Positions 19,664-40,172 of a stretch of DNA of 41,454 bases are shown piece after piece. Position numbers and translations under genes: made by a program. Source of the DNA: Kiritimatiellia bacterium (lineage in GTDB: Bacteria > Verrucomicrobiota > Kiritimatiellia > RFP12 > UBA1067). Every line of letters starts with the position of its first letter. The stretch's first letter is position 1. The notes under the pieces were generated by a model. That model did no database searches, was not told the DNA's origin, and saw only the letters and a list, made by a program, of their open reading frames with translations. The stretch spans positions 1 through 41,454 of the forward strand of contig JAGCJE010000271.1 in assembly GCA_017648225.1 (NCBI GenBank). Direction: 5' to 3'.

Positions 19664-20698
19664 ATGGCAAAATGTGATCTGAATGCAGTCGTTCAGATAG
19701 CCGAGAACGAGGTCGGTTATCTGGAGAAAAAGAGCAACAGTCAGCTCGACCACAAAACCGCCAACGCGGGAAGCAAGAACTACACCAAGTACAACCGCGA
19801 TTATAACGCGTGGGGCGGCGGTGGTGCGCAGCCGATGGAATGGTGTGCGGCGTTCGTTTCGTGGTGTTTCGTAATGGCCTACGGCCTCGAAGCGGCGAAA
19901 GCTCTGCTCTGCGGTGGTCTGCATCACTACACGCCCACCGGCGCGAACCGTTTCAAGGGGAAAGGTCGATACATCAAGCGCGGCGAGGGTACGCCCAAGC
20001 GCGGCGACGTGGTGTATTTCTTCTCTAAGGCAAAGGGACGGATCGGTCACGTTGGCATCGTCTACAAGGTCAGCTCGACCCGAGTTTACACGATCGAGGG
20101 CAACACGTCCGCCGGTAACACGCTGATCACCAACGGCGGCGGCGCGGCGTTCAAGTCCTACGCGCTTTCTAGTACGTACATCGACGGCTATGGTCGCCCG
20201 AATTACGCGGCAATCGAGGCCGGAACCGGCGAGATCGTGGCTCTCGATCTGGGCGATCGTCTGCTGACGAACGGTTGTCGAGGCGATGATGTCAAGGAGC
20301 TTCAGGAGGCTCTCATCTCCCTCGGTTACGATCTCGGCAAATGGGGCGCGGATGGTGATTTCGGCGATGCGACTGAGATCGCTGTCGAGAAGTTCCAGAG
20401 AGACCACGGTTGCACTCCGGACGGCGAGTTCGGCCCGATCAGTTTCGCGGCTCTGCAGACTGCGCTCATGGATCGAGAGCACTCCGCGCAGAAGGGCGGA
20501 AAGGTTCGCATCATCAACGGTAACTGTTGGGTGCGATCCGAACCCGACAAGATTCTCCCCGACACTCGTCTCGGTGTCGTCACTGAGGGGACGATCCTCG
20601 AGTATCGCGGTGAGAAATCTCCGGGCGGTTGGCTGGCGGTGCGATATGAAAATCGCGACGCCTGGGTCTCCGGAAAATATTCTAAGCTGGAGGAGTGA
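19664..20698 (+). CDS. Endolysin: CHAP amidase/peptidase + PG_binding_1 + SH3-like domains
   Basis: WCAAFVSWCF (Cys) and GHVGIVY (His). GDDVKELQEALISLGYDLGKWGADGDFG. C-terminal GWLAVRYENRDAWVSGKY. Confidence 0.85.
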   Translation: MAKCDLNAVVQIAENEVGYLEKKSNSQLDHKTANAGSKNYTKYNRDYNAWGGGGAQPMEWCAAFVSWCFVMAYGLEAAKALLCGGLHHYTPTGANRFKGKGRYIKRGEGTPKRGDVVYFFSKAKGRIGHVGIVYKVSSTRVYTIEGNTSAGNTLITNGGGAAFKSYALSSTYIDGYGRPNYAAIEAGTGEIVALDLGDRLLTNGCRGDDVKELQEALISLGYDLGKWGADGDFGDATEIAVEKFQRDHGCTPDGEFGPISFAALQTALMDREHSAQKGGKVRIINGNCWVRSEPDKILPDTRLGVVTEGTILEYRGEKSPGGWLAVRYENRDAWVSGKYSKLEE

Positions 20699-21280: not shown

Positions 21281-21313
21281 ACGCCCGGGCGAAATGCTCG
21301 GGCGTCTTTTTTT
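21281..21313 (+). terminator. Rho-independent terminator ending the late operon
   Basis: ACGCCCGGGC-GAAAT-GCTCGGGCGT followed by CTTTTTTT. Confidence 0.85.
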
Positions 21314-21580
21314 ATTCGCATTTTATTCGCGTGTGCGAATAACATGATCCGCGAAAATAGTCCAACATCATCACAACATTACTAACATCATTTTTCTGAA
21401 AAACGGCCCGATCTGAGCCGAAAATCGCTAATTATTACGAAATCGTAATAATTGAAACATTTGCGAATATCTCAAAAACGGGTCAAAAATAACATGAAAC
21501 GGGCTTTTTATAACATCAAATAACATGATCATTTTCGGATGATGTTATGCTCAAAACCGTTGCGACACAATGGTTTTCAG

Positions 21581-21717
21581 TATTATATAACATCATAATA
21601 TTATTTTTCTTTAATTATAAGAAGAATATATAATAATATAGATATATAATATATAAGAGTATAAGAGATAAAAGAAAGTATATAAGAAAACGCGGAAAAA
21701 TGGTGTTATGATGTTAT
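21581..21717. repeat. AT-rich ~137-bp block, copy 1 (partner at 41231-41367)
   Basis: Shared strings in the same order: TATTATATAACATCATAATATTATTT, AATTATAAGAA, ATAGATATATAA, TATAAGAGA, AAGAAAGTATATAAGA, GAAAAATG. Confidence 0.85.
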
Positions 21718-21736: not shown

Positions 21737-21765
21737 GTGACAACGCCTCCGAAACGTGGTATAAT
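21737..21765 (+). promoter_or_regulatory. Sigma-A-type promoter for the moron gene
   Basis: GTGACA, 17-nt spacer, TATAAT with TGn extension (TGGTATAAT). SD GAAGGAGG and ATG 21799 lie downstream. Confidence 0.6.
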
Positions 21766-21798: not shown

Positions 21799-22524
21799 AT
21801 GGAACGTGGACAACGTATATCCCCGCAGCAAACCCGTCCCGGACAACCTCAGAGACGACCCCAGAGCTCCACTCAGCGACCCGCTCAGAGACCGCCTCAG
21901 AGTCGCCCTCAAGGATCACAACAGCGTCGACCGGCTCAGTCCGCTCGCCCCACGCAGCCGACTCGACCCGTATCCCGCAAGCGCAGAAAGAACAAGTCAA
22001 AAAAGCCGTGGATCATCGGCGCGGCGGTTCTCCTACTCCTGATCATCATTTTCGGCTCTGGCGGTGAGAATGACAACGTCGCAACTCAGACCCCCACCTC
22101 TGCGCCAGTTAATAATGACACTGCCGTCACGACAGCGACCGACGCGCCTATTCAGACCCCATCTCTGTACCCTCAGACGATTTTCAATCAAAACGGTGTG
22201 ACAATCACTCTGATCGGATTCGATAAAGCTCCGCTCATGGGGCCTGAAATCAAGTTCACCGTCGAGAACAACAGCGGTGAGAGTCTGATCGTTCAGACCG
22301 GATCACTCCACTGCAACGGATGGCAAATCGTAGACGCGACGAGTTTCATCGAGGTTGCCAACGGTGCGAAAGCCGGAGAAACGATTTACGTCTGGAGTAC
22401 GTATCTCGACGAATGTCAACTCAAGGCGAGCGACCTTGTGAATGTTGAGTTCAAGGGCGCGTCGATCACGACGAGCGATTACATGAAAACCTATGAGTTC
22501 GACATGACTGCGACTCTCCAATAA
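21799..22524 (+). CDS. Type II membrane protein: P/Q/R-rich cytoplasmic N-terminus, one TM, beta-rich ectodomain (moron; possible superinfection exclusion or surface protein)
   Basis: QRP-type low complexity (aa 1-70), TM WIIGAAVLLLLIIIFG, about 150-aa ectodomain. Has its own promoter and terminator. Confidence 0.7.
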   Translation: MERGQRISPQQTRPGQPQRRPQSSTQRPAQRPPQSRPQGSQQRRPAQSARPTQPTRPVSRKRRKNKSKKPWIIGAAVLLLLIIIFGSGGENDNVATQTPTSAPVNNDTAVTTATDAPIQTPSLYPQTIFNQNGVTITLIGFDKAPLMGPEIKFTVENNSGESLIVQTGSLHCNGWQIVDATSFIEVANGAKAGETIYVWSTYLDECQLKASDLVNVEFKGASITTSDYMKTYEFDMTATLQ

Positions 22525-22526
22525 TT

Positions 22527-22562
22527 CAAAAGACCGAGGGGATCATCCCTCGGTCTTTTTTT
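22527..22562. terminator. Bidirectional terminator shared by convergent genes
   Basis: AAAA-AGACCGAGGG-GATCAT-CCCTCGGTCT-TTTTTT. The stop codon of the minus-strand RHH gene lies in the loop. Confidence 0.8.
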
Positions 22563-22743
22563 CGTTGTCTCGGATCATGGCCTCCTCGATTGCTCGATTG
22601 ATGAAGCCGTTCACAGATTCGCCCATGCGTTCGGCGTGGGCTTTTATTTTGTCCTTATCACCTTTAGGAACTCTGATTTTGATTTCCTCTAGTTTCTCGA
22701 GATATTTATCCACATACTTTTTGTTGTACTCATATGTCGGCAT
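22543..22743 (-). CDS. Ribbon-helix-helix (Arc/Mnt/CopG-like) DNA-binding protein
   Basis: IKIRVPKGDKDKIKAHAERMGESVNGFINRAIEEAM fits a beta-strand plus two helices. ATG 22743 follows GAAGGAGGG. Confidence 0.7.
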   Translation of the reverse strand: MPTYEYNKKYVDKYLEKLEEIKIRVPKGDKDKIKAHAERMGESVNGFINRAIEEAMIRDNEKKTEG

Positions 22744-22768
22744 TGTTTCGCCCTCCTTCAATGGGAGC

Positions 22769-22797
22769 ATTATATCACAAGTTATTTACTATGTACA
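22769..22797 (-). promoter_or_regulatory. Candidate promoter of the RHH gene
   Basis: On the minus strand: TGTACA, 17-nt spacer, TGaTATAAT. The -35 overlaps the TACTATGTAC operator copy. Confidence 0.45.
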
Positions 22798-22833
22798 CAT
22801 AGCATCTGCATGTTTAACAACATGTTTACATAA

Positions 22834-22877
22834 TATGGGTACATAGTATATTGACTTATCTATGGGTACATAGTATA
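22834..22877. repeat. Two direct copies of TATGGGTACATAGTATA (22834-22850, 22861-22877), plus an inverted core TACTATGTAC at 22787-22796: candidate RHH operators
   Basis: Exact 17-mers spaced 27 bp apart, overlapping the -35, spacer and -10 of the rightward promoter. Confidence 0.7.
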
Positions 22878-22879
22878 AT
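22851..22879 (+). promoter_or_regulatory. Consensus sigma-A promoter driving the antirepressor operon
   Basis: TTGACT, 17-nt spacer, TATAAT. Confidence 0.7.
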
Positions 22880-22902
22880 ATAATTGTTCCAAGGCAAGGA
22901 AC

Positions 22903-22932: not shown

Positions 22933-22952
22933 CAGGAAAGGAGGTGAGCCGA

Positions 22953-23051
22953 ATGACTGAGTACACAGTCGAGTATCGAGGGAAACGGTACGAGTTCCCA
23001 ACATGGTCTGAGATGATGGAGTTCATCGAAGAACATGAAATCCACGGCTAA
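22953..23051 (+). CDS. 32-aa ORF, first gene of the antirepressor operon
   Basis: Hand-translated as MTEYTVEYRGKRYEFPTWSEMMEFIEEHEIHG. SD GGAAAGGAGG. Below the track length cutoff. Confidence 0.5.
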   Translation: MTEYTVEYRGKRYEFPTWSEMMEFIEEHEIHG

Positions 23052-26561: not shown

Positions 26562-26646
26562 GTTAATAGCACGTTTTGTGATTTTTCACATTTGTTACTA
26601 AATGTGACGCAATTATTACATAAGTTTGAACAATCACATAATGTAG

Positions 26647-26675
26647 TTGACAGCGCACGAAACGTGACCTATAAT
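26647..26675 (+). promoter_or_regulatory. Rightward early promoter (PR-like) with an embedded operator
   Basis: TTGACA, 17-nt spacer, TATAAT. The spacer is GCGCACGAAACGTGACC, and the same 17-mer recurs at 26688-26704. Confidence 0.8.
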
Positions 26676-26740
26676 GCAAATTGTGAAGCGCACGAAACGT
26701 GACCCGCATCACGAAATGATCCACGGAAGGAGGAAAAACG

Positions 26741-27016
26741 ATGAAAGGAAGAAAGCCCGAGAAGATCGTGACGGTTCAGAAAACGAGAATGTCGGTCGCG
26801 ACGATCTATCCGAATCTGCTCGCAATGATCACGGATCGTGACATGACTGTCGCCGATCTGGGCAACATCCTCGGCGTCAGCGATCAGGCGATGCGTCGTC
26901 GTCTGCTGGGTAGAGCGAACGGAGGAACGGACATCACGGCCTATGAGTGTCACATTCTGTGTGAACATTTTCACAAGTCGTTCGAATGGTTGTTTGCGAC
27001 CGGTGATGTTGCGTGA
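26741..27016 (+). CDS. Cro-like / early HTH regulator
   Basis: Divergent from the repressor. MTVADLGNILGVSDQAMRRRL is HTH-like. SD GGAAGGAGG. Confidence 0.65.
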   Translation: MKGRKPEKIVTVQKTRMSVATIYPNLLAMITDRDMTVADLGNILGVSDQAMRRRLLGRANGGTDITAYECHILCEHFHKSFEWLFATGDVA

Positions 27017-27106
27017 ACGTGGTTCGATTTTACGAGACGCTCGCGAAGATCATCGGCGAACGAGAGGGAGTCGAGATTCGCGTGAGTGTCCGGGAGGTGA
27101 CAGAGA

Positions 27107-28429
27107 ATGATCGAACTGTATCGTCACCAACAGATCGCCCTATCGCATATGAGGACGAACTCAAGTTTCCTCCTTGCGATGGAGCAGGGCACGGGAAAGA
27201 CTCTGACGGCCCTCACAAGGCTCGCAGAACTAGCCGAACGAGGAAAGATCGACAGCGCGTTGATCGTGGCTCCGAAAGCGGTGCTCGCCTCATGGGAGCG
27301 TGATGTTGAGAAGTTCGACCGCGACCGGCAACGGCTGCTCCGACGAATCCTCACGATCGTCAATTATGATCTCGTGTGGAGACGCTCAGAGTATCGTCGA
27401 CACTGGGGAGCGATCGTCATCGACGAGGCCCATTATGTGAAGAACCGCACGAGCAACCGCTCGAAAGCGATCCTCGAAATGGCTCTCGATTCTGATTATC
27501 GATATGCGCTCACCGGAACACCGATCTCGAATGGAGCACTGCACGATATCTGGTCTCTGATGGCATTCCTCGAACCGGTCAAGATTCCGAGAGGGATCGG
27601 GACGACGGCATTCCCCGAGGCCGGGCCGACGTATTACAATTTTCAAGATCGCTATTGTTTCCTCGATCAGTATTTCAAGCCGTACCGATACCGACATGTC
27701 GACGAGCTCCAAGAGGTCATCGCTGATCACTCCTATAGGGTGAAGAAGATCGACTGTCTCGATCTCCCGGACAAACTGCCCGACGAGATTTATGAGATCG
27801 ATCTCGCAGAGCCGAAACTGTACAAGGAACTCGTCAAAGAGTCCGCGATCATGGAGATCGAGCTCCTCGCAGAGAATCCACTGCTCCGGATGCTGAGACT
27901 CCGACAATTGTGCTCAGGACATCTCCCGAACGTGGGTAGCCTGAAATGCGGAAAGCTGAAAGCCCTCGGAGAGTATCTCGACGGCTACGATGACAAGCTC
28001 GTCATTTTCGCTCAGTTCACCGCATCAATCGACGACATCTCCGGTCTGCTGAAAAAGCGCAAGGTCAAACATGTGGTTCTCGACGGACGGTCGAAGGATA
28101 AAGCGATTTGGAGGAAGTTCCAGACCGACGACTCGATTCGAGTGATCATCTGTCAGTATGAGGCCGGTGCGACGGGAATCGACCTGTTCGCGGCGAGCAC
28201 GATCCTATACTACGAGCCGACAATTCGATCGAACACACTCGAGCAGAGTCGGGACCGAATCCACCGCGTCGGGCAATCTCACCCGTGTTCGTATGTACAT
28301 TTCATAAGTAAAGGTACGATCGAGCGAGAGATATACCGAGCGTTGCAAGGGTTCGCGGATTTCTCCGAAAAGCTGTTTTCGGAGTATATATCGGAATATG
28401 CGCGGTCGCACAGAGGGGGTGCGCGATGA
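27107..28429 (+). CDS. SNF2/DEAD-like helicase
   Basis: LYRHQQ, EQGTGKT, VIDEAH, LTGTPISN and C-terminal helicase motifs. Confidence 0.85.
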   Translation: MIELYRHQQIALSHMRTNSSFLLAMEQGTGKTLTALTRLAELAERGKIDSALIVAPKAVLASWERDVEKFDRDRQRLLRRILTIVNYDLVWRRSEYRRHWGAIVIDEAHYVKNRTSNRSKAILEMALDSDYRYALTGTPISNGALHDIWSLMAFLEPVKIPRGIGTTAFPEAGPTYYNFQDRYCFLDQYFKPYRYRHVDELQEVIADHSYRVKKIDCLDLPDKLPDEIYEIDLAEPKLYKELVKESAIMEIELLAENPLLRMLRLRQLCSGHLPNVGSLKCGKLKALGEYLDGYDDKLVIFAQFTASIDDISGLLKKRKVKHVVLDGRSKDKAIWRKFQTDDSIRVIICQYEAGATGIDLFAASTILYYEPTIRSNTLEQSRDRIHRVGQSHPCSYVHFISKGTIEREIYRALQGFADFSEKLFSEYISEYARSHRGGAR

Positions 28430-28908
28430 GGGTTGACATAACTGGAGAACGTTTCGGACATCTGGTTGCGACAGAAAGAATAGAGACGGATCACAATTCG
28501 CAATCTGTATGGATGTGTAAATGTGATTGCGGAAATTTTCATCGAGCGACGTTGTCAAACCTGAGAAGCGGACGAACGCTGAGTTGCGGTTGCCGAAGGT
28601 GGAACCGTGAAAAGACTCGCAAACATCGCGGCAAGGGTACGAGATTGTATCGAATTTGGCAAGCGATGCTCAATCGTTGTCGAAATCCGAATACAGTCAA
28701 TTATAAATACTACGGGGGACGCGGTGTGCGGGTTTGTCCCGAATGGAGTCACGATTACGTGGCTTTTGAGCGGTGGGCTCTTTCGAATGGGTATGCTGAC
28801 AATCTCACAATCGACCGAATAGATGTTGATGGAGATTATTCTCCCAATAATTGCCGGTGGGCAACCATGAAGGAGCAACGGCACAATCAAAGATCGTTCA
28901 GGAAGTAG
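28426..28908 (+). CDS. AP2/HNH-like DNA-binding protein (free-standing homing-endonuclease-like)
   Basis: LSCGC...YRIWQAMLNRCRNPN..YKYYGGRGVRVCPEW...LTIDRIDVDGDYSPNNCRWAT pattern. Confidence 0.6.
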   Translation: MRVDITGERFGHLVATERIETDHNSQSVWMCKCDCGNFHRATLSNLRSGRTLSCGCRRWNREKTRKHRGKGTRLYRIWQAMLNRCRNPNTVNYKYYGGRGVRVCPEWSHDYVAFERWALSNGYADNLTIDRIDVDGDYSPNNCRWATMKEQRHNQRSFRK

Positions 28909-28916
28909 GTTTTTAT

Positions 28917-28946
28917 TTTTACCCACAAGGTTACAAAATGTGACCT
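28917..28946 (+). promoter_or_regulatory. Conserved 30-nt element TTTTACCCACAAGGTTACAAAATGTGACCT upstream of polB
   Basis: 25/30 identical, ungapped, to 31738-31767. Contains the palindrome GGTTACA-AAA-TGTGACC. Confidence 0.7.
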
Positions 28947-28979
28947 GACGACACGAAATGAAAGGAGGGCTCAAACGGG

Positions 28980-31598
28980 TTGAACATCTACATATACGAT
29001 TTCGAAGTTCTCTCTCACGACTGGATCGTGGTGATCCGTCGAGTCGATAGTCCACATCACACGGTAATCCACAACGATAATTATCGTTTGAAAGAATGGA
29101 TTCTCGCCCATCAGGACGACGTGATCGGAGGTTATAACTCGAAGGGGTACGATGACTGGATTCTCCAGTCTATCCTCAACGGAGCCGATAACGCGACGGT
29201 GAAAGCTCACAACGATTTCATCATCGCAGAGCACCGAAACGGATGGGAGTTCCCGTTCATTCAGTATCAACGAAAGTTGTTCCGGTCATTCGATCTCAAG
29301 GACGATCTCCCGAAGGGCCTGAGCCTCAAGGCGATCGAGGGGAACATGTATCTCCCCATCGTCGAGAGTTCCGTCCCGTTCGATATCGATCGACCGCTGA
29401 CGCCCGAGGAGCTCGACGAGCTGATCTACTACTGTAAAAAGGACGTGGACGCGACTGTCGCTCTCTATGAACGCCGAAAGGAGTACATCAAGAGCAAACT
29501 CACCGTCGCAAAGCTGAAAGGTCTCGACCCGGCTGTCGCGCTCGCTCAGACGAACGCAAAGCTCGCGGCGATGTATCTCGACGCGAAGCCAGTCGAACGC
29601 GTAGACGGTCGCCGGTACGAGATCCCGGAGAATCTCGATCAGACGATGATTCCCCGCGAGGTGCTCGATTTCTTCAATCAGATTCGAGATGAAAGCATCC
29701 CGGACGAGGAACTGTTCGAAAAGAATCTCGTCGTCGAGATCGCCGGTTGCGAATGTGTTTTCGCATGGGGTGGCGTACACGGTGCGGTTCCGAACACGAT
29801 CGCCGAGAGTGATCCCGAGGGGACACCGGATCGTCGAATCATCGTGAACTATGACGTCGCCTCGCTTTACCCGAACTCGATGCTCAATTTCGGATATGTT
29901 TCCCGAAGCTGCGAGAACCCGAACGCGTTCCGCGATCTGGTTGAAACCCGTCTCAAGGCCAAGAAAGCCAAGGACAAGGACACCGCGAACGCTCTGAAAC
30001 TCGTCATCAATACGACATACGGCGCGATGTTAAATGCTTATAATCCACTCTACGACGAGCGAGCCGGTCGATCGGTCTGCATCTCGAATCAGCTCTCGAT
30101 GTGCGAGCTTGTGTGTAGACTTGAGCAAAATGTCCCGTCGTTCGAGATTCTGAATTTCAACACCGACGGCGTGATGTTCCGAGTTCTCGAGTCCGAGATG
30201 ACCACGGTCGAGCCGATCCTCGAGGAATGGCAGAAGCGAACGCGATTCGCACTCGAGCGCGACGATGTGATTCGACTCGTTCAGAAGGACGTGAACAACT
30301 ACATCGCCGAGGAGGGCGGAGGAAAGATCAAAGCATGCGGCGACTACGTCAAGCGATGGCAAGGCGACAATGTCACCGATGAGAACGACATCAAGGCCCG
30401 TCTCATCAACAACGACCTCACGATCGTTCAGATCGCTCTCGTCGAGAGATTGCTTCACGACGTACCGGTCGAAAAGACGATCACCGAGTGTCAGAACATC
30501 CACTATTTCCAGCAGATCGCGAAGTTTGGCAGCTCCTACGACTCAGCGTTTCACGAGGTGAACGGCGAGCGCGTACCGGTGCAAAAGGTCAATCGTGTAT
30601 ATGCTGCGAAGGATGAGCGGTTCGGAACCGTGAAGAAGGTTCGTCCGAACGGCAAGGTTGAAAAGATCGCCTCTCTCCCGGATCATTGCATCATTGACAA
30701 TGAGAACCGGTTGACGGTGGATCAGATCGACAAACAGTTTTACATCGATCTCGCGAACGAGCGAGTCGAACAATATCTCGTCGGCAAGAAGTCGACAAAG
30801 AAGAAAAAGAAGGAGGACAAACAAATGGCAGTAGCAAAGCCCACGACCCCGATGAACGTCTATCAGAAGCTCATCGCCGCCCGAAAGATGTTTCAGGAGG
30901 CCGACGTGAAGAAATCCGGTATCAACCGATTTGCCGATTTCAAATATTTTGAACTCGCCGACATCGTCCCGGCAAAGACTCACATTTTCGCCGAGCTCGG
31001 TCTCGTCGACTGCGTGACGTTCACGCCCACCGACGCGACGCTCTATCTGTTTAACGTGGACAATCCCGATGAGGTGATCCCGTTCCAGTCTCCCATGAGA
31101 CCGCTGACCGTAGTCTCTCAGACCGGTAAAAACAAGATGAACGAGCTGCAGGGCCTCGGAGCCGAGGAGACATATCAGCGTCGTTACCTCTACATGATGG
31201 CTCTGGACATCGTTGAGGCTGACAGTTTCGACGCAACGAGTGGACAGAGCGAGACCTCGAAGTCACAGAATGTAACCAAGAGCTCGCAGGAGACCGCAGA
31301 ACCGACGAGCGTCGTGAGTGCGAACAAATCCTCGTCCACGAGACCGGCGTCTCAGAACGAGCGTGAGGCCGTCAAAAAGGCATTGACGAACACTGACGGC
31401 AATGCTGACACCGCTCAGGTGAACGCAATCATCCGCGCATTGAAGAAGCTGCGCGAAAAGGACGCCGACAGATATGAGGCGTATATCGGCGAGTGTCAGG
31501 CGAAGATCCCGACCAAGAAGAACCCGGAGAGAGTGATCTCGAAGAAGGACGCGGACGACATGTTGATCGCCATCGGCGAGAAGATTGAGGAGGAATAA
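28980..31598 (+). CDS. Family-B DNA polymerase (aa 1-615) continuous in frame with an ERF-type single-strand annealing protein (aa 616-872)
   Basis: Exo motifs YDFEV, GYNSKGYDDW, YYCKKDVDAT. Pol motifs DVASLYPNSM, KLVINTTYGAM, NFNTDGV. TTG start after AAAGGAGG. Confidence 0.8.
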   Translation: MNIYIYDFEVLSHDWIVVIRRVDSPHHTVIHNDNYRLKEWILAHQDDVIGGYNSKGYDDWILQSILNGADNATVKAHNDFIIAEHRNGWEFPFIQYQRKLFRSFDLKDDLPKGLSLKAIEGNMYLPIVESSVPFDIDRPLTPEELDELIYYCKKDVDATVALYERRKEYIKSKLTVAKLKGLDPAVALAQTNAKLAAMYLDAKPVERVDGRRYEIPENLDQTMIPREVLDFFNQIRDESIPDEELFEKNLVVEIAGCECVFAWGGVHGAVPNTIAESDPEGTPDRRIIVNYDVASLYPNSMLNFGYVSRSCENPNAFRDLVETRLKAKKAKDKDTANALKLVINTTYGAMLNAYNPLYDERAGRSVCISNQLSMCELVCRLEQNVPSFEILNFNTDGVMFRVLESEMTTVEPILEEWQKRTRFALERDDVIRLVQKDVNNYIAEEGGGKIKACGDYVKRWQGDNVTDENDIKARLINNDLTIVQIALVERLLHDVPVEKTITECQNIHYFQQIAKFGSSYDSAFHEVNGERVPVQKVNRVYAAKDERFGTVKKVRPNGKVEKIASLPDHCIIDNENRLTVDQIDKQFYIDLANERVEQYLVGKKSTKKKKKEDKQMAVAKPTTPMNVYQKLIAARKMFQEADVKKSGINRFADFKYFELADIVPAKTHIFAELGLVDCVTFTPTDATLYLFNVDNPDEVIPFQSPMRPLTVVSQTGKNKMNELQGLGAEETYQRRYLYMMALDIVEADSFDATSGQSETSKSQNVTKSSQETAEPTSVVSANKSSSTRPASQNEREAVKKALTNTDGNADTAQVNAIIRALKKLREKDADRYEAYIGECQAKIPTKKNPERVISKKDADDMLIAIGEKIEEE
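30825..31598 (+). CDS. ERF-family annealase, possible independent translation from an internal start
   Basis: GAAGGAGG, 7 nt, then ATG 30825. NVYQKLIAARKMF...FADFKYFELADIV...GAEETYQRRYLYMMALDI is ERF-like. Confidence 0.6.
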   Translation: MAVAKPTTPMNVYQKLIAARKMFQEADVKKSGINRFADFKYFELADIVPAKTHIFAELGLVDCVTFTPTDATLYLFNVDNPDEVIPFQSPMRPLTVVSQTGKNKMNELQGLGAEETYQRRYLYMMALDIVEADSFDATSGQSETSKSQNVTKSSQETAEPTSVVSANKSSSTRPASQNEREAVKKALTNTDGNADTAQVNAIIRALKKLREKDADRYEAYIGECQAKIPTKKNPERVISKKDADDMLIAIGEKIEEE

Positions 31599-31601
31599 AT
31601 C

Positions 31602-31721
31602 ATGACTGTGGGTGGGGCGTTGGGCTTTATGGCTCTCGGCGGTGTTATCGTTTTTCTGTTTGATTATCGCGCATGGCGAATGTATCTGCAAGGGAGAAAA
31701 GACCCATATCGTCAGAAATGA
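31602..31721 (+). CDS. 39-aa single-TM peptide
   Basis: Hand-translated as MTVGGALGFMALGGVIVFLFDYRAWRMYLQGRKDPYRQK. SD GAGGAGGA lies 7 nt upstream. Confidence 0.45.
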   Translation: MTVGGALGFMALGGVIVFLFDYRAWRMYLQGRKDPYRQK

Positions 31722-31737
31722 GTCGAAAGCCCTATAG

Positions 31738-31767
31738 TTTTACCCACAAGTTCACATTTTGTGACCT
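31738..31767 (+). promoter_or_regulatory. Conserved 30-nt element TTTTACCCACAAGTTCACATTTTGTGACCT upstream of the exonuclease gene
   Basis: Partner of 28917-28946. Followed by AAAGGAGG and a TTG start. Confidence 0.7.
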
Positions 31768-31789
31768 ACAAGCGAAAGGAGGACACAGT

Positions 31790-32845
31790 TTGAGTATCAG
31801 GTTCAATCAGGAACTCCAGAGGATCGAGATCGATCCCCCGAAACGCCCGAAGAAGATCACCGGAACCCGTCTCGCTGCGATTCTGGGCGCGAACAAATGG
31901 AGCACTCCGTTCGAGGCGTGGTGCGCAATCACTCGCACCTATGAAAAGCCGTTCGAGGGTTCCATCTACACCGAGGCCGGTAAGGTGATCGAGCCCAAGA
32001 TCACCGAGTATCTGCGAAAGCGGTATTTCATGGAGCTCAAGAGACCCGAGGATGTTTACGGCGAGGATTTTTTCAAAAAGACGTGGGGTGATTTTTTCGG
32101 ACACGTCAAGATTTTCGGCGGCATGTGGGACGCGCTCGGCGAGGACTATGTCGTCGAGATCAAGACTACGAAACGCGCCGAGGATTGGGGGAAAGAGCCT
32201 CCGTTGAATTACATGCTGCAAGGTGCGCTCTATGCATGGTTGCTCGGGTTCGACGACGTGCTGATGGTCTGCGCGTTCCTCGAGGATAAGGATTATGAGC
32301 ATCCGGAGAATTTCGTCCCGACGATCGAGAACACGTATCAATATCCGTTCAAGATTTCCAAGCGGTTCCCGAATTTCGAGGACGAGGTCATTCTCCCGGC
32401 GACACTGTGGTGGACTGAGCACGTTGAGAAAGGCATCTCCCCCGAGTACGACATCGCGAAGGATGCCGAAATCATCAAGGCTCTGAGAACGAACGTCGTC
32501 GGCGACGATGCGAACGACGAGTCTCGATCGCTCTCCGATCTGGTGAGCGAATACGAGTCCGTCACCGAGGACATCGATCGACTGCGCGAGCGTTACGGCA
32601 TCGACAAGCTCGAGAAGCTGGCGAAAGAACTGAACGATCGGATCAAGACTCAGCTCGTCGCGCAGTTCCGCGAGAGTGACAAGTCGGTGAAATACAGTTC
32701 GCCGTCGCAGACCTACACCGTGACCAAGTCGGAGAGAGCCTCGATCGATGCGAAAGCTCTCAAGGCCGACAAACCGGACATTTTCGCGCAGTATGTGAAA
32801 ACGTCCACGTCCTACACGCTCAAGGCGAGCGCGAACAAGGAGTGA
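31790..32845 (+). CDS. YqaJ/lambda-Exo-type PD-(D/E)XK exonuclease
   Basis: ITGTRLAAILGANKWSTPFEAW and GMWDAL..DYVVEIKTT motifs. The track ORF (31673) was trimmed to in-frame TTG 31790, after AAAGGAGG. Confidence 0.8.
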   Translation: MSIRFNQELQRIEIDPPKRPKKITGTRLAAILGANKWSTPFEAWCAITRTYEKPFEGSIYTEAGKVIEPKITEYLRKRYFMELKRPEDVYGEDFFKKTWGDFFGHVKIFGGMWDALGEDYVVEIKTTKRAEDWGKEPPLNYMLQGALYAWLLGFDDVLMVCAFLEDKDYEHPENFVPTIENTYQYPFKISKRFPNFEDEVILPATLWWTEHVEKGISPEYDIAKDAEIIKALRTNVVGDDANDESRSLSDLVSEYESVTEDIDRLRERYGIDKLEKLAKELNDRIKTQLVAQFRESDKSVKYSSPSQTYTVTKSERASIDAKALKADKPDIFAQYVKTSTSYTLKASANKE

Positions 32846-32851
32846 TCCGAC

Positions 32852-33022
32852 ATGATGTGTCCTGTGTGTCAGTGTGAACACACCAAGGTCATCGACAGTC
32901 GACCGAATGACGAGGAGGTCGTCCGCCGTCGCGAGTGCCCGAAATGTGGCGCGAGATGGATCACTCAGGAAAGACTCCTCCGAGTAATTGAACCGAAAAA
33001 GAAAAGGAGCAATGAATCATGA
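32852..33022 (+). CDS. NrdR-like zinc-ribbon protein lacking the ATP-cone (56 aa)
   Basis: Hand-translated as [56 protein letters not shown]. Compare the NrdR N-terminus M.CP.C....TKVIDSR...RRRR.C..C..RFTT.E. Confidence 0.65.
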
Positions 33023-33558
33023 AGTTTGAAAAGCATCTCAAGAATACCGGCATCTATGGCATCGTTTGCACTGCCTACAATGGCGACAAGTATCTCCGCA
33101 CCGGCAAGAACGGCCACGTCCTCGCACGTGTCCCCGCCGGATTCGCTCCCGTCGGTCAGGCCGTGACCCACGATCTCGAGGGTTGGATCAACGACATTCT
33201 CATCAAGGGCGCGGAGGAGCTCCACGAGGCGAAGCTGTTCGCCGCAAAGCTGGAGAAGGACGGCAAGGCGAAGGACATCCGTCGCATCTGGGCCGACGAC
33301 AATCGCCTCGGCGACGATGGGTTCGGTCTGCGTCGATGCGAAATCGACAACGCTGCTTTCGGCCTGATCGAGCGCGGCGACGACGTGCGCATCTTCGACC
33401 CGAATGTCGATTGTTCTCTGCTCGACGCGGATGATCTGGAGCCCATCGACGAGCCCGTCGAGGCGAAGGACGCCGAGACGATCACTCCCGCGCTCGTGGT
33501 TCTGGATCGTGACGAGACGGTCGTCGGCATCATTCTCGAGCCGTGGTGGGAGAATTGA
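33019..33558 (+). CDS. Hypothetical protein with an acidic C-terminal half
   Basis: ORF track. ATGA overlap with the upstream gene. Confidence 0.65.
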
Positions 33559-33665
33559 CCGCCGTGGTGATCGTGCTCCTGGGGATCGTGTTGATGATCT
33601 CTCTGGGCGCGTACTGGAACAATGATTTTGAAGAAGTCCAAGAGGACGCAGACAACGAAAAATAG
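33555..33665 (+). CDS. About 36-aa single-TM peptide (start uncertain: TTG 33555 or GTG 33564)
   Basis: Hand-translated as [35 protein letters not shown]. Confidence 0.35.
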   Translation: MTAVVIVLLGIVLMISLGAYWNNDFEEVQEDADNEK

Positions 33666-33677
33666 GAGGATATAACA

Positions 33678-34103
33678 ATGGCAAGAATCACTCTGAGCAA
33701 AAACACTGGTTTCACCCTGATCCCCGAAGGATTCCACGTTTTCAAGGTCGTTGATGTGGACATGAGCAAATACGACGGTTTCGGCAAGATCGAGGTCAAG
33801 CTCGAGACCGCGAACGGTCAGAAACATTCCGAGCGTTTCTCCCTGCTGAATAACAAGGGCGAGGTCAACGAGGGCGCGCTGAACGCGTTCAGCTATTTCG
33901 CCCGCACCGTCCTGAACGACTACAAGGCCGAGGACATCGATCCCGCCGAACTGATTGGTCATTTCATCCGCGCCGAGATCAAGCACGTCGTTTCCGATCG
34001 CATCAACGAAAAGACCGGCAAGCCGTACGTCAACGCGAACCTCGGCGACAAGGAACCCGCTCTCGGTTTCGACGGTGAGTCCGACGAACTGGAGGAGCTG
34101 TGA
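33678..34103 (+). CDS. Replication-module protein with an acidic C-terminal tail (DUF669-like, possible ssDNA-binding)
   Basis: 141 aa. Tail DGESDELEEL. Context between the recombination and nuclease/primase genes. Confidence 0.5.
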   Translation: MARITLSKNTGFTLIPEGFHVFKVVDVDMSKYDGFGKIEVKLETANGQKHSERFSLLNNKGEVNEGALNAFSYFARTVLNDYKAEDIDPAELIGHFIRAEIKHVVSDRINEKTGKPYVNANLGDKEPALGFDGESDELEEL

Positions 34104-34390
34104 TTCACGAGCGCGATCTCCAGTCGAAGTGTCTGAAATGGCTGCGGGATCGCGACATCTACACCATCAACACACACGGTGACGGCTGGGGCGGCAAAGG
34201 GACGCCGGATCTGACGATGTGCGTCAACGGTCGTTTCGTCTGCGCAGAACTGAAAGTCGGCGCGGGTGAAATGAGTTCCGCTCAAAAACTGCATCGCGTG
34301 TGGATCGAGCGCAACGGGGGGATCTTCTTCTCCCCGTACACGCTCGGGGAATTTATCGAAAAAATGGAGGGGATCATCAAAAATGAATAG
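34100..34390 (+). CDS. VRR-NUC domain nuclease
   Basis: GTPDLTMCVNGRFVCAELKVGAGEMSSAQKLH is a PD-(D/E)XK pattern typical of VRR-NUC. Confidence 0.75.
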   Translation: MIHERDLQSKCLKWLRDRDIYTINTHGDGWGGKGTPDLTMCVNGRFVCAELKVGAGEMSSAQKLHRVWIERNGGIFFSPYTLGEFIEKMEGIIKNE

Positions 34391-36317
34391 AGAATATGTG
34401 ATCCTCAATGAGAACAAAGAGCCGACTCACAAATTCAAAAATGGCGGAAAACCGTGGGAATCCGTCAAAAATGAGCCGAATCTCGCGCTGATCGTGCCCG
34501 AAGGATTCGTCGTTCTGGATTTTGACACCGAGTCTGATGCAAAAATCATCAAGGACATCGTCGACGGGATGGACCTCCCCGTTCGCGTGATGCAGACGAC
34601 GAGAGGCGTTCATGTCTGGTTTAAGGCCCCGGAGGGCGAGGAGATCAAGAACGGCATCAAGCAGCGACTCGCGATCGGTATCTATTCCGACCGCAAAGCC
34701 GGAGGCCGAAACGCATATGTCAAGATTCGCGACGGCGGTAAGAATCGCCCGTGGATCAAGTCGACGAGCTTTGATGACCTGATGGTTCTCCCCCGCTGGC
34801 TCCGCCCGATTCAGGGCATCCGCGACGGTGGGTTCGATTTCAAGGCTCTCGGCGAGGGCGGCGGACGGAATCAAAAGCTCTTTAACTACATCGTGTATTT
34901 GCAGAGCAAAGGATTCACCCGCGAGGAGATCAGAACCACGATTCGAGTGATTAACGACTATGTGTTCGAGAGTCCTCTCGACGACGAGGAGATGGACAAG
35001 ATTCTCCGTGATGAGTCGTTCAAGCCCGAGGAGCAGATCGCAGCAGAACAAGCCGAACGCAAGTCGAGCCGAGAGTTCAGACACAATGATTTCGGCGAGG
35101 AACTGATCGCGATGTATCACATCATTACATACAACGGTCAGCTCTACATCTACGAAGACGGCTTTTATCAGGCCGATGAGCGAATCATTGAGAACAAGAT
35201 GATCGAGATGTTCCCTGGCATCAAGCAACGCCAACGCGCCGAGGTGCTCGCGTACATACGCATTCGCACTCATGTCCCGGCGGGTGATCTGAGGTTCGAC
35301 CCGTGGACGGTCAATCTCAAGTCGGGCCGACTTAATCTCCGGACGCTGACTCTCAGTGAGCACACGCCGGACGCGATTGAGTTCGACCGCATCCCGGTCG
35401 ATTATGATCCGGATGCATATTGTGCAGCTCTCGACGGAATGCTCGACAAGGTGTTCTGTTATGACGAGGAGGTTCGCAAGCTGTTCGAGGAGATGGTCGG
35501 ATATACGCTGATGCGTCACGCGAATTATCAAAAGGCGTTCATGTTCTACGGCTCCGGCTCGAACGGAAAATCCACGATCCTCGATCTGATCAAGGCGTTT
35601 CTCGGTAAGCACAATTATGTATCGATCGACATTCGTGAACTGACGAAAAAGCAGTTCAGCGCGGCGGAACTCGAGAACAAGCTCGCGAACGTCGGCGACG
35701 ACATCAACGACGGCGCGATCGAGGGAACCGGCGTTCTCAAGAAGCTGTTCGCAGGAAACTCGATGCAAGTCGAGCGCAAGGGCGAAAGGCCCTTCCAGCT
35801 CGAGCCCTATGCGACCCACATTTATTCATGCAACGACATCCCGAGATCGGCGTCCGACAAGACGTTCGGATTCTATCGCCGATGGGCGTTCATCCCGTTG
35901 AAAGCGAAATTCTCGACCGCTGACGCCGATTATGATCCGCTGATCAAAGAGAAGATCGTCACGCCCGAGGCTCTGTCGTATCTGCTGAATCTGGCTCTCG
36001 AGGGTGCTCAGAGACTCATTCAGAGCAACGGATTCACCGAGCCGAAAGTCGTCGCGGAAACGCTCGAGTCGTACAAGATCGACAACTCCTCGACGCTGTC
36101 GTGGGTGGATGAGTGCAAGATCGCTCTGAGCGTGATTCTCGAAAAGCCGACGACTGAACTATATAGCATGTTTGCGGATTGGTGCAAACTGTCCGGCGTG
36201 AAGTCGACGCCGTCTCGAAAAACATTCTGTCGCGAGCTGCGCGATCGTTTCGATCTTGACGATGGCTTGCGTCAGGGTAAGGGCGGAAAGTGGTATTTTC
36301 GCGTAAATCTCGATTGA
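34383..36317 (+). CDS. Bifunctional primase-polymerase / D5-P4-type helicase
   Basis: AEP motifs VVLDFD and GVHVWF. Walker A GSGSNGKST. 644 aa. Confidence 0.85.
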   Translation: MNREYVILNENKEPTHKFKNGGKPWESVKNEPNLALIVPEGFVVLDFDTESDAKIIKDIVDGMDLPVRVMQTTRGVHVWFKAPEGEEIKNGIKQRLAIGIYSDRKAGGRNAYVKIRDGGKNRPWIKSTSFDDLMVLPRWLRPIQGIRDGGFDFKALGEGGGRNQKLFNYIVYLQSKGFTREEIRTTIRVINDYVFESPLDDEEMDKILRDESFKPEEQIAAEQAERKSSREFRHNDFGEELIAMYHIITYNGQLYIYEDGFYQADERIIENKMIEMFPGIKQRQRAEVLAYIRIRTHVPAGDLRFDPWTVNLKSGRLNLRTLTLSEHTPDAIEFDRIPVDYDPDAYCAALDGMLDKVFCYDEEVRKLFEEMVGYTLMRHANYQKAFMFYGSGSNGKSTILDLIKAFLGKHNYVSIDIRELTKKQFSAAELENKLANVGDDINDGAIEGTGVLKKLFAGNSMQVERKGERPFQLEPYATHIYSCNDIPRSASDKTFGFYRRWAFIPLKAKFSTADADYDPLIKEKIVTPEALSYLLNLALEGAQRLIQSNGFTEPKVVAETLESYKIDNSSTLSWVDECKIALSVILEKPTTELYSMFADWCKLSGVKSTPSRKTFCRELRDRFDLDDGLRQGKGGKWYFRVNLD

Positions 36318-36318
36318 G

Positions 36319-36534
36319 GTGATGATCGTGCCGAGGGAACGGTTGATCGACTCACCCGAAATGATCGCGCGTTGTTTGTCGTGTCCTCTCAAGGAGTGCA
36401 TTTGTAACACTCGCGGAAAATGTCCGATACTCGACCGGGAGGTGATAAATCATGACGGGAATCAAACTCGCGGTTCTGATCTGGATCGTCGCGGTATTGT
36501 TTTCGATCGTCGTGCATATACGGGACGACGATGA
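36319..36534 (+). CDS. Small Cys-rich protein (uncertain; 3' part overlaps the next micro-ORF)
   Basis: CLSCPLKECICNTRGKCP. The C-terminal third looks like off-frame sequence. Confidence 0.35.
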   Translation: MMIVPRERLIDSPEMIARCLSCPLKECICNTRGKCPILDREVINHDGNQTRGSDLDRRGIVFDRRAYTGRR

Positions 36535-36556
36535 TTTCGATGATGATCTTTTATAA
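36452..36556 (+). CDS. 34-aa single-TM peptide with an acidic tail
   Basis: Hand-translated as MTGIKLAVLIWIVAVLFSIVVHIRDDDDFDDDLL. SD GGGAGGTG. Confidence 0.45.
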   Translation: MTGIKLAVLIWIVAVLFSIVVHIRDDDDFDDDLL

Positions 36557-36576
36557 ATGAGTTGGAGGTATATTTC

Positions 36577-37242
36577 ATGAAAATCATTGAACCTTCGTTC
36601 AGATGGCTCGACGGGAAGATCCCCGACGGCCGAGCGATCCTCGCGAACATTGCGACCGCCGGTCGCGTTTGCTATCAGTCCGAACCGACCTCGGACGACG
36701 CGACGTTCGTTCGGAATCTCATCAAGCGCGAACACGAGTCTGTTATCGAACACGGATTGATCAGCGTTTTGCTCACGTGCGACCGTGGTGTCACGCATGA
36801 GGCCGTGAGACATAGAATCGCGAGCTATTCTCAGGAATCCACCCGCTACTGTAATTATAGCAAGGGGAAATTCGGAGCCGAGATCACTTATATCGACATC
36901 TCCCGAGGGATCGAGCTGTGTCCGGTGACTTCGAAGCTCGCGCCCGAGACGATCTCGGAGATCGTCGGCGTATGGTGGGCCGCTTGTCTGTATGCTGAGA
37001 ATGCATATATGCACATGATCGAGCTCGGAGCATCACCCCAGATCGCTCGATCCGTACTCAACAACTCCACGAAAACGGCGATCGTGGTCTCGATGAATCC
37101 TCGCGAGTGGCGACATTTTTTCAAGCTGCGCAACGATCCGGCGGCACATCCTCAGATGAGAGAAGTCGCGGGAATGATGCTCGCCGAGTTCAAAAACGCC
37201 GTACCGGTGATCTTCGACGATCTGGAGGTGCAGGATGATTGA
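36577..37242 (+). CDS. thyX: Flavin-dependent thymidylate synthase ThyX
   Basis: ThyX signature RHRIASYSQESTRY. ATG 36577 follows GGAGG. Confidence 0.85.
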   Translation: MKIIEPSFRWLDGKIPDGRAILANIATAGRVCYQSEPTSDDATFVRNLIKREHESVIEHGLISVLLTCDRGVTHEAVRHRIASYSQESTRYCNYSKGKFGAEITYIDISRGIELCPVTSKLAPETISEIVGVWWAACLYAENAYMHMIELGASPQIARSVLNNSTKTAIVVSMNPREWRHFFKLRNDPAAHPQMREVAGMMLAEFKNAVPVIFDDLEVQDD

Positions 37243-37816
37243 CAACGCAAAGAAAGACGCAGAAGCGTTGCGCGAGATATTGGTTGATGATTGCGTTGAC
37301 TTTCCGCATGTTGTTCACACTATGCTCCATAAAGCCGCCGACCTGATCGAATCCCTCGCCGCAGAGCTGGAGCAGGTCAAGCGGGAGCGGGATGGTCTGC
37401 AGGCGGAACTCGATGAGCTGAAAGAAGAGTATTATGTGGACATACACACCGCTCGTGACCCTATGGCGGACAAGATCAAGCAGCTTGAGGCGCGCGAGTG
37501 GGATTTGTTCGACCTTCTTTCATCCGCATGGTTTGGTAAGCGGTGCTATTTTCGACAGGATGACGGCAATGTTTACAGCCGCTTGACCGGAGAATATATG
37601 TTGTTTGATCAGGCGATTGATGAACTTGCGCACGAGCTGACCTATGACCGCGAATGCGAGCGGGCCGAACCCGTGCGGCATGGGCGGTGGGAACTCGAAA
37701 CATCAAAGTACCTTCGCCGCTGTTCTGCATGCGAAAAGGTGACCTTCTATCGCGGCGCTGGGCGTCATTACGACTACTGCCCCAACTGCGGCGCGAGGAT
37801 GGATTTGGAGGTGTAA
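37235..37816 (+). CDS. Hypothetical protein: coiled coil plus C-terminal zinc ribbon
   Basis: CSACEKV...YCPNCGARM. Codon style differs from neighbouring genes. Confidence 0.65.
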   Translation: MIDNAKKDAEALREILVDDCVDFPHVVHTMLHKAADLIESLAAELEQVKRERDGLQAELDELKEEYYVDIHTARDPMADKIKQLEAREWDLFDLLSSAWFGKRCYFRQDDGNVYSRLTGEYMLFDQAIDELAHELTYDRECERAEPVRHGRWELETSKYLRRCSACEKVTFYRGAGRHYDYCPNCGARMDLEV

Positions 37817-37818
37817 TC

Positions 37819-38250
37819 GTGAGTATATTCGACTACGTGCCCGAGAATCGAGCGGGTCGACGAGCTGAGAGTCGCAGACTCCAGCAGGAGGCCGAGGCGG
37901 AGGCGAAATATCTCGCAAGGCGTGATGCTGCAAAACGTGCGGCGATGGAAAAGATCGCACGTAACGGAATCACCATCGACGATCTCAAGCGCGAATATGA
38001 GCGCGGACGGAACGAGTCGATCACCGAGGTTTCTGAGTATGCGATGAAAATGATTTATTGCGGATTCGCTCTCGCGCTTAAGCGAGAGTTCAAGTTCGGA
38101 GCCGAGCGCGTTCTTCGAACGCTCCGCGCCGCTGATCAGATCATTCTCGAGGAGCTCACGACCGAGGACATCATCGATCGTGTGAGCCGAGAGCTCGGAA
38201 TCACTGTTCGGTTCGACTGTAAGAAGGGAGAGGAACTGTTTGACGTTTGA
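37819..38250 (+). CDS. Hypothetical protein
   Basis: Track ORF trimmed to GTG 37819, after GGAGGTG. Confidence 0.6.
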   Translation: MSIFDYVPENRAGRRAESRRLQQEAEAEAKYLARRDAAKRAAMEKIARNGITIDDLKREYERGRNESITEVSEYAMKMIYCGFALALKREFKFGAERVLRTLRAADQIILEELTTEDIIDRVSRELGITVRFDCKKGEELFDV

Positions 38251-38575
38251 TGAATATCAAGCACTCGCTCAGAGGACGAGCTCGAAATGGCACAGTCGCA
38301 TTTTGAACGGTGCGCTCGGTCTCTCGGGTGAGGTCGGTGAGTGTGCTGACCACGTGAAGAAGCATTTTTTTCAAGGTCACAATCTCGATTGTGCTCATCT
38401 CGCCGAGGAGATCGGCGATGTGCTGTGGTATTGTGCGGAACTGGCCTCGGGAATCAATCGATCTCTCGATGAGATCGCTGAGATGAACATCGCAAAGCTC
38501 CGCAAACGATACCCGGACGGGTTCGATTCTGAGAGAAGTGTCCACCGCGCCGAATATGAGGTGATTGAGAAATGA
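38240..38575 (+). CDS. MazG-like nucleotide pyrophosphohydrolase
   Basis: LSGEVGECADHVKK...LAEEIGDVLWYCAELA...MNIAKLRKRYP. TTG start. Confidence 0.8.
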   Translation: MTFDEYQALAQRTSSKWHSRILNGALGLSGEVGECADHVKKHFFQGHNLDCAHLAEEIGDVLWYCAELASGINRSLDEIAEMNIAKLRKRYPDGFDSERSVHRAEYEVIEK

Positions 38576-39489: not shown

Positions 39490-39509
39490 CATCTGAGGAG
39501 GTGTCCCAC

Positions 39510-40162: not shown

Positions 40163-40172
40163 GGTGATTTTG

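Follow-up and report, generated by a model that had tools for sequence, protein, structure and literature searches.

A duplicated, origin-like iteron module brackets the late operon of an uncultured temperate siphophage

The temperate siphophage genome analysed here carries two copies of a ~400-bp module of short iterons, a small hairpin and a very AT-rich core, one on either side of its late operon. We consider it fairly probable that the AT-rich blocks are the unwinding cores of origin-type, initiator-binding modules. The arrangement would then be a SaPI/P4-type origin module that has been duplicated and displaced from its rep gene in a widespread uncultured phage family, with the presence of two copies far from that gene as its unusual part. 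Replication origins of uncultured gut phages have almost never been mapped; this family is abundant, and its members carry an easily recognised module (iterons, hairpin, AT core, iterons). Were the modules origins, they would provide a sequence rule for the origin and the specificity determinant in hundreds of PriRep/P4-type phages and satellites, natural sets of orthogonal initiator/iteron pairs, and a tractable temperate phage that keeps two complete origin-like modules at opposite late-operon ends. Such a two-module case bears on replication-mode switching and on the coupling of replication to late expression.

Genome organization

The window (the whole 41,454-nt stretch of DNA that was analysed) has the same sequence at positions 1 to 66 and 41389 to 41454 (repeat family D4), and given this terminal 66-base redundancy, the phage genome is a circle of 41,388 bp. 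Genes were mapped from Pfam annotation. The late operon opens with a small Cys-rich ORF (41388, wrapping to 187), whose ribosome binding site (RBS) and ATG (41388) come directly after copy B of the AT-rich block, followed by a sigma-70 region-4/DUF1492-like late regulator (184 to 606, plus strand), which is the second gene 3' of module B and a rival candidate for binding the repeats described below. HNH, TerS and TerL genes follow (~1 kb beyond module B), and the operon runs on to an endolysin (19664 to 20698) and a small membrane protein. A strong intrinsic terminator (21281 to 21313, plus strand) stands directly 5' of module A, which lies between this terminator and a sigma-70-type promoter (GTGACA-17-TGgTATAAT; 21737 to 21765, plus strand). 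That promoter, 3' of module A, is the canonical promoter of a membrane “moron” ORF (21799 to 22524), and beyond the ORF are a Bro-N gene, a serine integrase gene (int) and, on the minus strand, a repressor gene. The early operon (26741 to 40971, plus strand) encodes an SNF2 helicase, an 872-aa ERF fusion, YqaJ, a 644-aa Prim-Pol/D5 primase-helicase, Thy1, MazG and others, and module B lies between its end and the first late-regulator genes.

On a circular genome, the two copies therefore bracket the late operon, as a preliminary description of the sequence had proposed: copy B precedes the first late genes (wrapping to position 1), and copy A follows the late terminator and precedes the moron promoter, where that description had also placed a copy. 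On the circle, 19.6 kb separate the two module anchors in one direction and 21.7 kb in the other, so that they are nearly opposite each other. GC skew climbed monotonically with the direction of transcription and was uninformative on origins.

Anatomy of the repeated modules

The preliminary description had noted, by eye, a directly repeated AT-rich block of ~137 bp and ~85% identity. Global alignment of positions 21581 to 21717 (copy A) with 41231 to 41367 (copy B), both on the plus strand, gave 117 identical columns out of 142 (82%; score, 84), compared with 60 ± 2% identity (maximum, 65.5%) and a score of 14.2 ± 5.5 (maximum, 31) for 1,000 dinucleotide-preserving shuffles of one copy. The duplication thus stood up to the formal alignment against shuffled sequence that had been suggested as its check, with identity well above the shuffles. 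The strings quoted as common to both blocks were found in both, and no ORF of at least 50 aa was found in either, in agreement with the earlier statement that neither holds a credible ORF. The blocks are the two most AT-rich spots in a genome of 52.8% GC, with minima of 9 to 10% GC per 80 bp.

Two other points of the description had to be revised. Similarity does not end with a 137-bp unit, and the informative repeat is not the TATAAGA-like unit but a flanking 8-mer of the form AACAYSAT. The ~260 bp lying 5' of each block aligned at chance level (53% identity, versus 52% for shuffles), and yet both upstream stretches have a common layout of the repeated 8-mer. What is shared there is therefore the arrangement of sites and not the sequence, and the block forms the proximal third of a module of ~400 bp. 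The window has 13 copies of a related 9-mer, TAACATSAT; of these, 12 lie inside the two intergenic regions, against 0.5 expected.

Module A (21341 to 21715, plus strand) comprises 11 AACAYSAT-type 8-mers, a hairpin and the AT core. Its distal cluster (21341 to 21391, plus strand) holds four direct 8-mers (21341, 21364, 21375 and 21384), and its middle cluster (21491 to 21546) holds three direct 8-mers (21491, 21512 and 21522) and one inverted 8-mer (21539). Between the middle cluster and the block, just 5' of the latter, lies a short hairpin, CAAAACC-N13-GGTTTTC (21551 to 21579, plus strand), of a CAAASCC..GGGTTT motif class that was also found in relatives and in cultured phages. The block of copy A has one 8-mer on its left (21589, plus strand) and two on its right (21700 and 21708, minus strand), with a ~90-bp AT core, purine rich on the top strand, and the fixed string AAAAGAAAGTATATAAGA (21670 to 21687) between them. 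On the left side of this core, the intact 8-mer at 21589 is followed by a degenerate second unit; relatives have two intact left units (TATAACACCATAACATCAT) and two to three right units.

Module B (40970 to 41363, plus strand) has 10 8-mers, a hairpin-like element and the AT core. Four direct 8-mers (40970, 40993, 41003 and 41012) form its distal cluster (40970 to 41019, plus strand) and three inverted ones (41114, 41133 and 41145) its middle cluster (41114 to 41152, minus strand); together, these two clusters make up a 29-nt imperfect inverted repeat (I14). The block of copy B repeats the plan of copy A, with a left 8-mer at 41239 (plus strand), an AT core, AAAAGAAAGTATATAAGA at 41318 to 41335, and right 8-mers at 41348 and 41356 (minus strand).

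In both modules, the ~90-bp core has a GC content of 9 to 18% and 8-mers of opposite orientation on its two sides. Site offsets from the invariant AAAAGAAAGTATATAAGA were near-identical in module A, module B and all relatives: four direct 8-mers at −350 to −285, the middle cluster (mixed orientation) at −205 to −130, one direct 8-mer at −80 (left edge of the block) and one to three inverted 8-mers at +30, +38 and +47 (right edge). In several contexts, the right-hand iterons are only ~25 to 50 bp from an RBS.

Modules in related phages

The sigma-like protein had 98 homologues in metagenomes, and every contig that encodes one has module B 5' of the Cys-rich ORF and the sigma-like gene. Copies of the A type were recovered by a pattern scan of JGI metagenomes and IMG/VR; they follow tail and lysis genes and precede a canonical promoter and a membrane ORF. 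Among cultured phages, no close DNA relative was found (best TerL match, 46% identical); an IMG/VR search with an exact 23-mer, and one with the sigma-like protein alone, gave no match, and neither did a search of GTDB representative genomes with the block pattern. Genes just 5' of module B differ among close relatives.

Within this close family, the repeats change in concert. In one clade, most sites have switched from AACATCAT (T form) to AACACCAT (C form). The window has the T form in both A and B, an IMG/VR contig of 41,717 bp (UViG_3300032167_000309) has the C form in both, and all three genomes in which both modules were seen carry the same variant in their two modules. That ~10 sites have changed together at each locus, with 20 kb between the two loci, suggests that the 8-mer is read by a protein of the phage itself. 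The AT core is strongly conserved in sequence within the close family (z, 7 to 10). AT-core signatures specific to A or to B and conserved across the T and C lineages were considered and were contradicted by the identity matrix; position-specific signatures are present within the ATAACAAAA family introduced below.

Farther away, at least seven uncultured lineages have kept the module layout with entirely different repeat sequences, and at least eight iteron types share the one layout across lineages. Iterons of uncultured relatives include TAACACCAT, ATAACAAAA, CAAACTnTGTT, AAATCAC and ATGACAC. One relative (L016) led to a large distant family with the iteron ATAACAAAA and the same module layout (TerL, ~65% identical; primase-helicase, 55 to 60%; sigma-like protein, 31 to 33%). 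Its modules take two positions, one 5' of the sigma-like regulator and one beside the serine integrase; in UViG_3300012979_000078, the two are mutually inverted, one facing int and the other the sigma-like gene. In three more lineages (primase 64 to 68% identical), the module is in the same position, with the iterons CAAACTnTGTT, AAATCAC and ATGACAC. Between distant families, similarity of the AT core is near chance (z, 1.6 to 3.8); what is kept is its length and composition, a purine-rich top strand (69% purine over the last 60 nt) and a few short strings (TATATAAG-N5-6-GCG). Conservation mainly of composition and length is as expected of an unwinding element.

The nearest cultured homologues by primase (35 to 40% identity) are Paenibacillus phage Wanderer, Bacillus phage BMBtp15 and Staphylococcus phage PI-Sepi-HH2. 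In all three, a module of iterons, hairpin, AT core and inverted iterons stands directly after the primase stop codon, each phage having its own iteron (GTAACAGAT in Wanderer, GGTTACAG in BMBtp15 and ATAAGACA in PI-Sepi-HH2). The likeness to our modules extends to the homologous primase-helicase, the CAAASCC..GGGTTT-class hairpin and an AT core with a ATATATAAAAGAAA-like end; the differences are that the cultured modules abut the primase gene and that the records do not annotate them as origins. Wanderer has a single module. Module B is separated from the primase gene by one small ORF in L056, by ~1.2 kb in L053 and by 4.65 kb in the window, and this variation among relatives marks it as the positional equivalent of the cultured-phage modules, with accessory genes inserted.

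Candidate binding protein

The candidate trans factor is the primase-helicase (644 aa; 34383 to 36317, plus strand), which has Prim-Pol, PriCT_1, D5_N and SF3 helicase (DUF5906) domains and a C-terminal domain. It matched SaPI5 PriRep5 (PDB 7OLA; E value, 2.9e-26; residues 254 to 615) and TIGR01613, the model of the P4-family primase C terminus (189 bits; cut-off, 108.7), and it belongs to a family of >1,300 clusters (90% identity) with E values below 1e-20. The C-terminal ~85 aa are its most diverged part, with 43 to 47% identity, against 61 to 63%, between families and 69 to 77%, against 83 to 89%, within the family. Substitutions in this domain partition with the T and C iteron types, a pattern confounded with phylogeny; the wing sequence, for example, is GKWYFRV in T-iteron genomes and GKR(F/Y)FRV in C-iteron genomes.

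An AlphaFold2 (AF2) model of residues 529 to 644 (116 aa; pLDDT, 82) had three helices followed by a beta hairpin and looks like a winged helix; a single-sequence model of the C-terminal domain was poor (pLDDT, 51). The top Foldseek matches of the domain model were all winged-helix DNA binders, none of them significant (best E value, 0.2), and the P4 origin-binding domain (1KA8) was listed at rank 28 (E value, 0.77). Searched alone, the C-terminal domain found four homologous proteins only and had no significant sequence match in the PDB.

The other candidate reader of the 8-mer is the sigma-like protein. Module B always adjoins the sigma-like gene and also sits 3' of the primase gene, so adjacency does not tell the two candidates apart. 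The recognition helix of the sigma-like protein is identical (YSVTQTRRYYE) in the genomes L009 (T iterons) and L007 (C iterons), while the C-terminal domain of the primase differs between them, which favours the primase-helicase as the reader in a comparison confounded with phylogeny.

Comparison with known origins

The SaPI origin has 6 to 12 iterons, a central AT-rich region and at least two opposed iterons per side, and the Rep helicase, which loads itself, recognises the iterons through a winged-helix C-terminal domain (PMC9371898). Our modules agree with this SaPI/PICI plan in having 11 (A) or 10 (B) clustered short iterons, within the range of 6 to 12, in a non-coding stretch; an AT-rich centre with opposed flanking iterons; an encoded SF3 helicase homologous to SaPI5 PriRep5; and an iteron sequence that varies by lineage along with the helicase C-terminal domain, albeit confounded with phylogeny. 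They differ in number and place: the SaPI origin is single and immediately 3' of rep, whereas here there are two modules, one 4.65 kb downstream and the other about half a genome away. A position directly 3' of rep, absent in the window, is found in Wanderer, BMBtp15 and PI-Sepi-HH2 and very nearly in L056. The modules described here are also longer (~400 bp), with an extra distal iteron pair-set and the conserved small hairpin.

[quoted passage not shown] Our genome resembles SPP1 in the two similarly organised modules, one of which SPP1, too, has in the late region next to morons. The replication proteins are different: SPP1 uses the initiator gp38, the DnaB-type helicase gp40 and the loader gp39, its oriL is inside gene 38, and its repeats are unrelated to ours. 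Among 20 early-region proteins scanned with Pfam, no gp38-type initiator, DnaB-type helicase or loader was found; the replication genes in this region are those for SNF2, the ERF fusion, YqaJ and Prim-Pol/D5.

With P4, the phage shares a P4-family primase-helicase and two separated cis regions that lie kilobases from each other and have one octamer-type iteron in common. The P4 alpha protein needs both ori and crr, which share the same octamer, and crr is a pair of 120-bp repeats, 4.5 kb from ori, that is not known to have an unwinding core of its own; these facts reportedly go back to Flensburg and Calendar in 1987 and to Ziegelin et al. in 1993. In contrast to crr, both copies in our phage are complete and equivalent in anatomy. 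The host here is also of the Gram-positive type, and the N-terminal primase is a Prim-Pol and not of the P4 type.

Interpretation

From the anatomy of the modules, their conservation, the co-variation of their repeats and the helicase homology, we infer initiator binding, melting of the core and origin firing, as well as any role of the second copy. The primase-helicase would bind the 10 or 11 AACAYSAT iterons through its C-terminal DNA-binding domain, and the opposed iterons flanking the ~90-bp core would place helicase assemblies so as to melt it; the Prim-Pol domain could then prime synthesis. Module B would occupy the ancestral position, 3' of the primase gene and 5' of the late regulator, with the 4.65 kb of accessory genes now intervening. 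Its place is within the early transcript or at the transcript's end, and it is probably the primary origin. Module A appears to be an old second copy, retained in every lineage in which the region was seen, and might serve as a second origin, as a helper in the manner of P4 crr or as a barrier to forks, formed by bound initiator, as has been proposed for SPP1 oriR. The genome offered no other origin candidate, and the DNA following the primase gene (36317 to 36562) has neither iterons nor an AT-rich region.

Four functions had been suggested for the blocks at the outset. Of these, origin or DNA-unwinding sequence is the one we favour; an activator-dependent or sigma-70-type promoter and a non-coding RNA found no support, and a recombination cassette explains none of the repeat anatomy. 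Several observations count against origins. Neither module in the window abuts the primase gene. The modules are polar, with an orientation that tracks the downstream gene, and their right-hand iterons are close to an RBS, features that fit a regulatory element as well. Conservation of the core at the sequence level within the close family is more than an unwinding role alone would need.

It is possible, if somewhat doubtful, that only B is an origin and that A is a site that binds the initiator without initiating, i.e., an enhancer like crr, a fork barrier that makes theta replication give way to the rolling-circle mode, or an iteron “sink” whose pairing with B controls initiation. Module B is the copy in the position equivalent to the modules of the cultured relatives, and Wanderer manages with one module. 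P4 alpha needs both ori and crr, with one octamer in common. SPP1 has two similar origin regions and a proposed fork-stalling oriR (PMC6316719). Against a purely auxiliary module A stands its complete anatomy, AT core and opposed flanking iterons included, in which the sequence bears no mark of a defect, and two modules with complete cores have been kept across distant lineages.

The strongest rival, although we judge it unlikely, is that the modules are promoter/operator cassettes, in which the 8-mers would be operators (for the sigma-70-region-4/DUF1492 regulator, for example) and the AT block a non-canonical promoter (TATAAG ~7 nt before the conserved GCG) for the late regulator, int or the moron gene. 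Module polarity always matches the downstream gene, including in the inverted pair of UViG_3300012979_000078; in modules of the B type and in some near int, an RBS directly follows the right-hand repeats; TATATAAG-N5-6-GCG has been kept in families with different iterons; the iteron core ATAACA, on our own reading of the sequence, resembles a −35 hexamer; and module B always adjoins the sigma-like gene. A consensus scan, however, found no plus-strand −35/−10 pair in the blocks above shuffle expectation, and the best pairs in 30 modules were weak (5.5 to 9.5 of 12) and inconsistent in position. Module A has no need of a promoter, since the gene that follows it already has a strong canonical promoter. 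Operators are not usually laid out as 10 or more sites scattered over 400 bp with a 90-bp AT core among them. The constancy of the sigma-like recognition helix between L009 and L007, against a differing primase C-terminal domain, also tells against an operator for that regulator, as does Wanderer, whose primase ORF runs at its 3' end into the first iterons and whose module is not next to the regulator, another gene lying in between. The hairpin loop together with the block's left edge was also considered as a sigma-A promoter and rejected as weak and inconsistent.

A module could serve as origin and as regulatory element at once; among viruses with SF3 initiators, SV40 and the papillomaviruses are examples in which the origin overlaps a promoter region. 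A combined role, which we regard as a rather long shot, would make the modules, which stand at the two ends of the late operon and always point at the gene that comes next (late activator, integrase or moron), replication-coupled gates. Occupancy by the primase-helicase, or pairing of the arrays, would then license or block transcription entering the late regulator and int; or else an R-loop, arising from rightward transcription over the purine-rich core, might open the origin and prime it, in the manner of T4 oriF/oriG. If gates they were, a very abundant gut phage family would have a built-in link from genome replication to the lysis/lysogeny programme.

Very improbable is the idea that the blocks are conserved linkers for homologous recombination that swaps the structural module, with no role in the individual phage. 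The blocks do sit exactly at module boundaries, the genes just 5' of module B vary among close relatives, and the phage encodes ERF and YqaJ recombination proteins. Linkers would leave unexplained the positioned and oriented iteron arrays, the concerted change within genomes and the complete turnover of iterons under a retained layout, and between distant families, the near-chance similarity of the cores would make them a poor recombination substrate. Still more improbable is a non-coding RNA or structured leader encoded by the blocks: block A and the whole of module B folded better than shuffles (z, −4.6 and −6.4), but the signal came from the inverted 8-mers only (block B; z, −0.2), module A lies between a terminator and a promoter, the core varies between families with no compensatory structure, and Rfam 15 at gathering thresholds gave no match in the whole window.

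Two further element types were considered and set aside. A partition site was rejected, since integration is by a serine recombinase and genes of the ParA/ParB/ParM type were not found. An attP or cos/pac site was rejected on the presence of two copies and on the wrong architecture, with the HNH-TerS-TerL packaging genes a further ~1 kb on. The cI/cro operators and a second operator set at 22780 to 22880 have motifs that differ from the 8-mers.

At the right end of the AT core, both origin-like modules carried the string TATATAAG, found within positions 21670-21699 (module A) and 41318-41347 (module B) and also in the module loci of relatives (L069, L071, and the K-family loci). Downstream of the string came GCG or CGC, 5 to 6 nt on, followed by a run of A or T. 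The distance from TATATAAG to the right-hand iterons was constant across families whose iterons are unrelated. The element may mark where priming or another start takes place, or it may be a noncanonical −10 element together with its start point.

Between their AT core and their iteron clusters, nearly all modules, those of cultured phages included, had a small hairpin (CAAA(A)SCC-N8-13-GG(G)TTT(T)G). It was located at 21551-21579 in module A and 41180-41203 in module B, recurred in relatives' loci L053, L055, and L063 and in the cultured phages BMBtp15 (L066) and PI-Sepi-HH2 (L067), and could serve either to bind a protein or to terminate transcription weakly in both directions. A further hairpin, with a perfect 9-bp stem (ATTATTACG-AAAT-CGTAATAAT; 21431-21452), was present in the module A spacer and had no counterpart in module B. 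Immediately 3′ of the distal 8-mers of module A was ATTTTTCTGAAAAAC (21389-21404), which two A-type copies (L010 and L011) retained and B-type copies lacked; in our own comparison, it agreed with the CodY box consensus, AATTTTCWGAAAATT, at 12 of 15 positions.

Positions 1-66 of the window were repeated exactly at 41389-41454. This 66-bp terminal repeat is an assembly overlap, and the genome is 41,388 bp long and circular or circularly permuted; genes and features therefore wrap across the window ends. Homologues of the phage's primase-helicase formed 1,308 clusters (90% identity; E < 1e-20), the majority of them in gut assemblies from humans and animals, which indicates that the phage family is very common, though it has no close cultured member. 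When GTDB representative genomes were searched for the block pattern, no prophage carrying it was found.

Other motifs were noted outside the modules. The repressor/cro intergenic region contained a set of operators (26570-26704), comprising two copies of AGCGCACGAAACGTGACC (26652 and 26687) and an inverted CACGTTTTGTG (26570), all unrelated to the module 8-mers. A 17-bp repeat, TATGGGTACATAGTATA, occurred twice, with an inverted copy (22784-22877), in an AT-rich divergent region flanked by small open reading frames (22543-22770, reverse strand; approximately 22934-23051, forward strand); the arrangement resembles another regulatory switch, independent of the first. Two copies of a motif of approximately 30 bp, TTTTACCCACAAGKTCACAWWWTGTGACCT (28914-28946 and 31735-31767), each with an internal TCACA..TGTGA palindrome, were positioned just 5′ of the ribosome binding sites of two early genes, one for an ERF fusion protein and one YqaJ-like; the motif may act as an internal site for early or middle regulation. 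The ERF fusion protein (872 amino acids; 28980-31598) had its single-strand-annealing domain confined to residues 628-772, and approximately 600 N-terminal residues were without domain assignment. The ATAACAAAA phages, a distant family, have conserved this protein at 46% identity.
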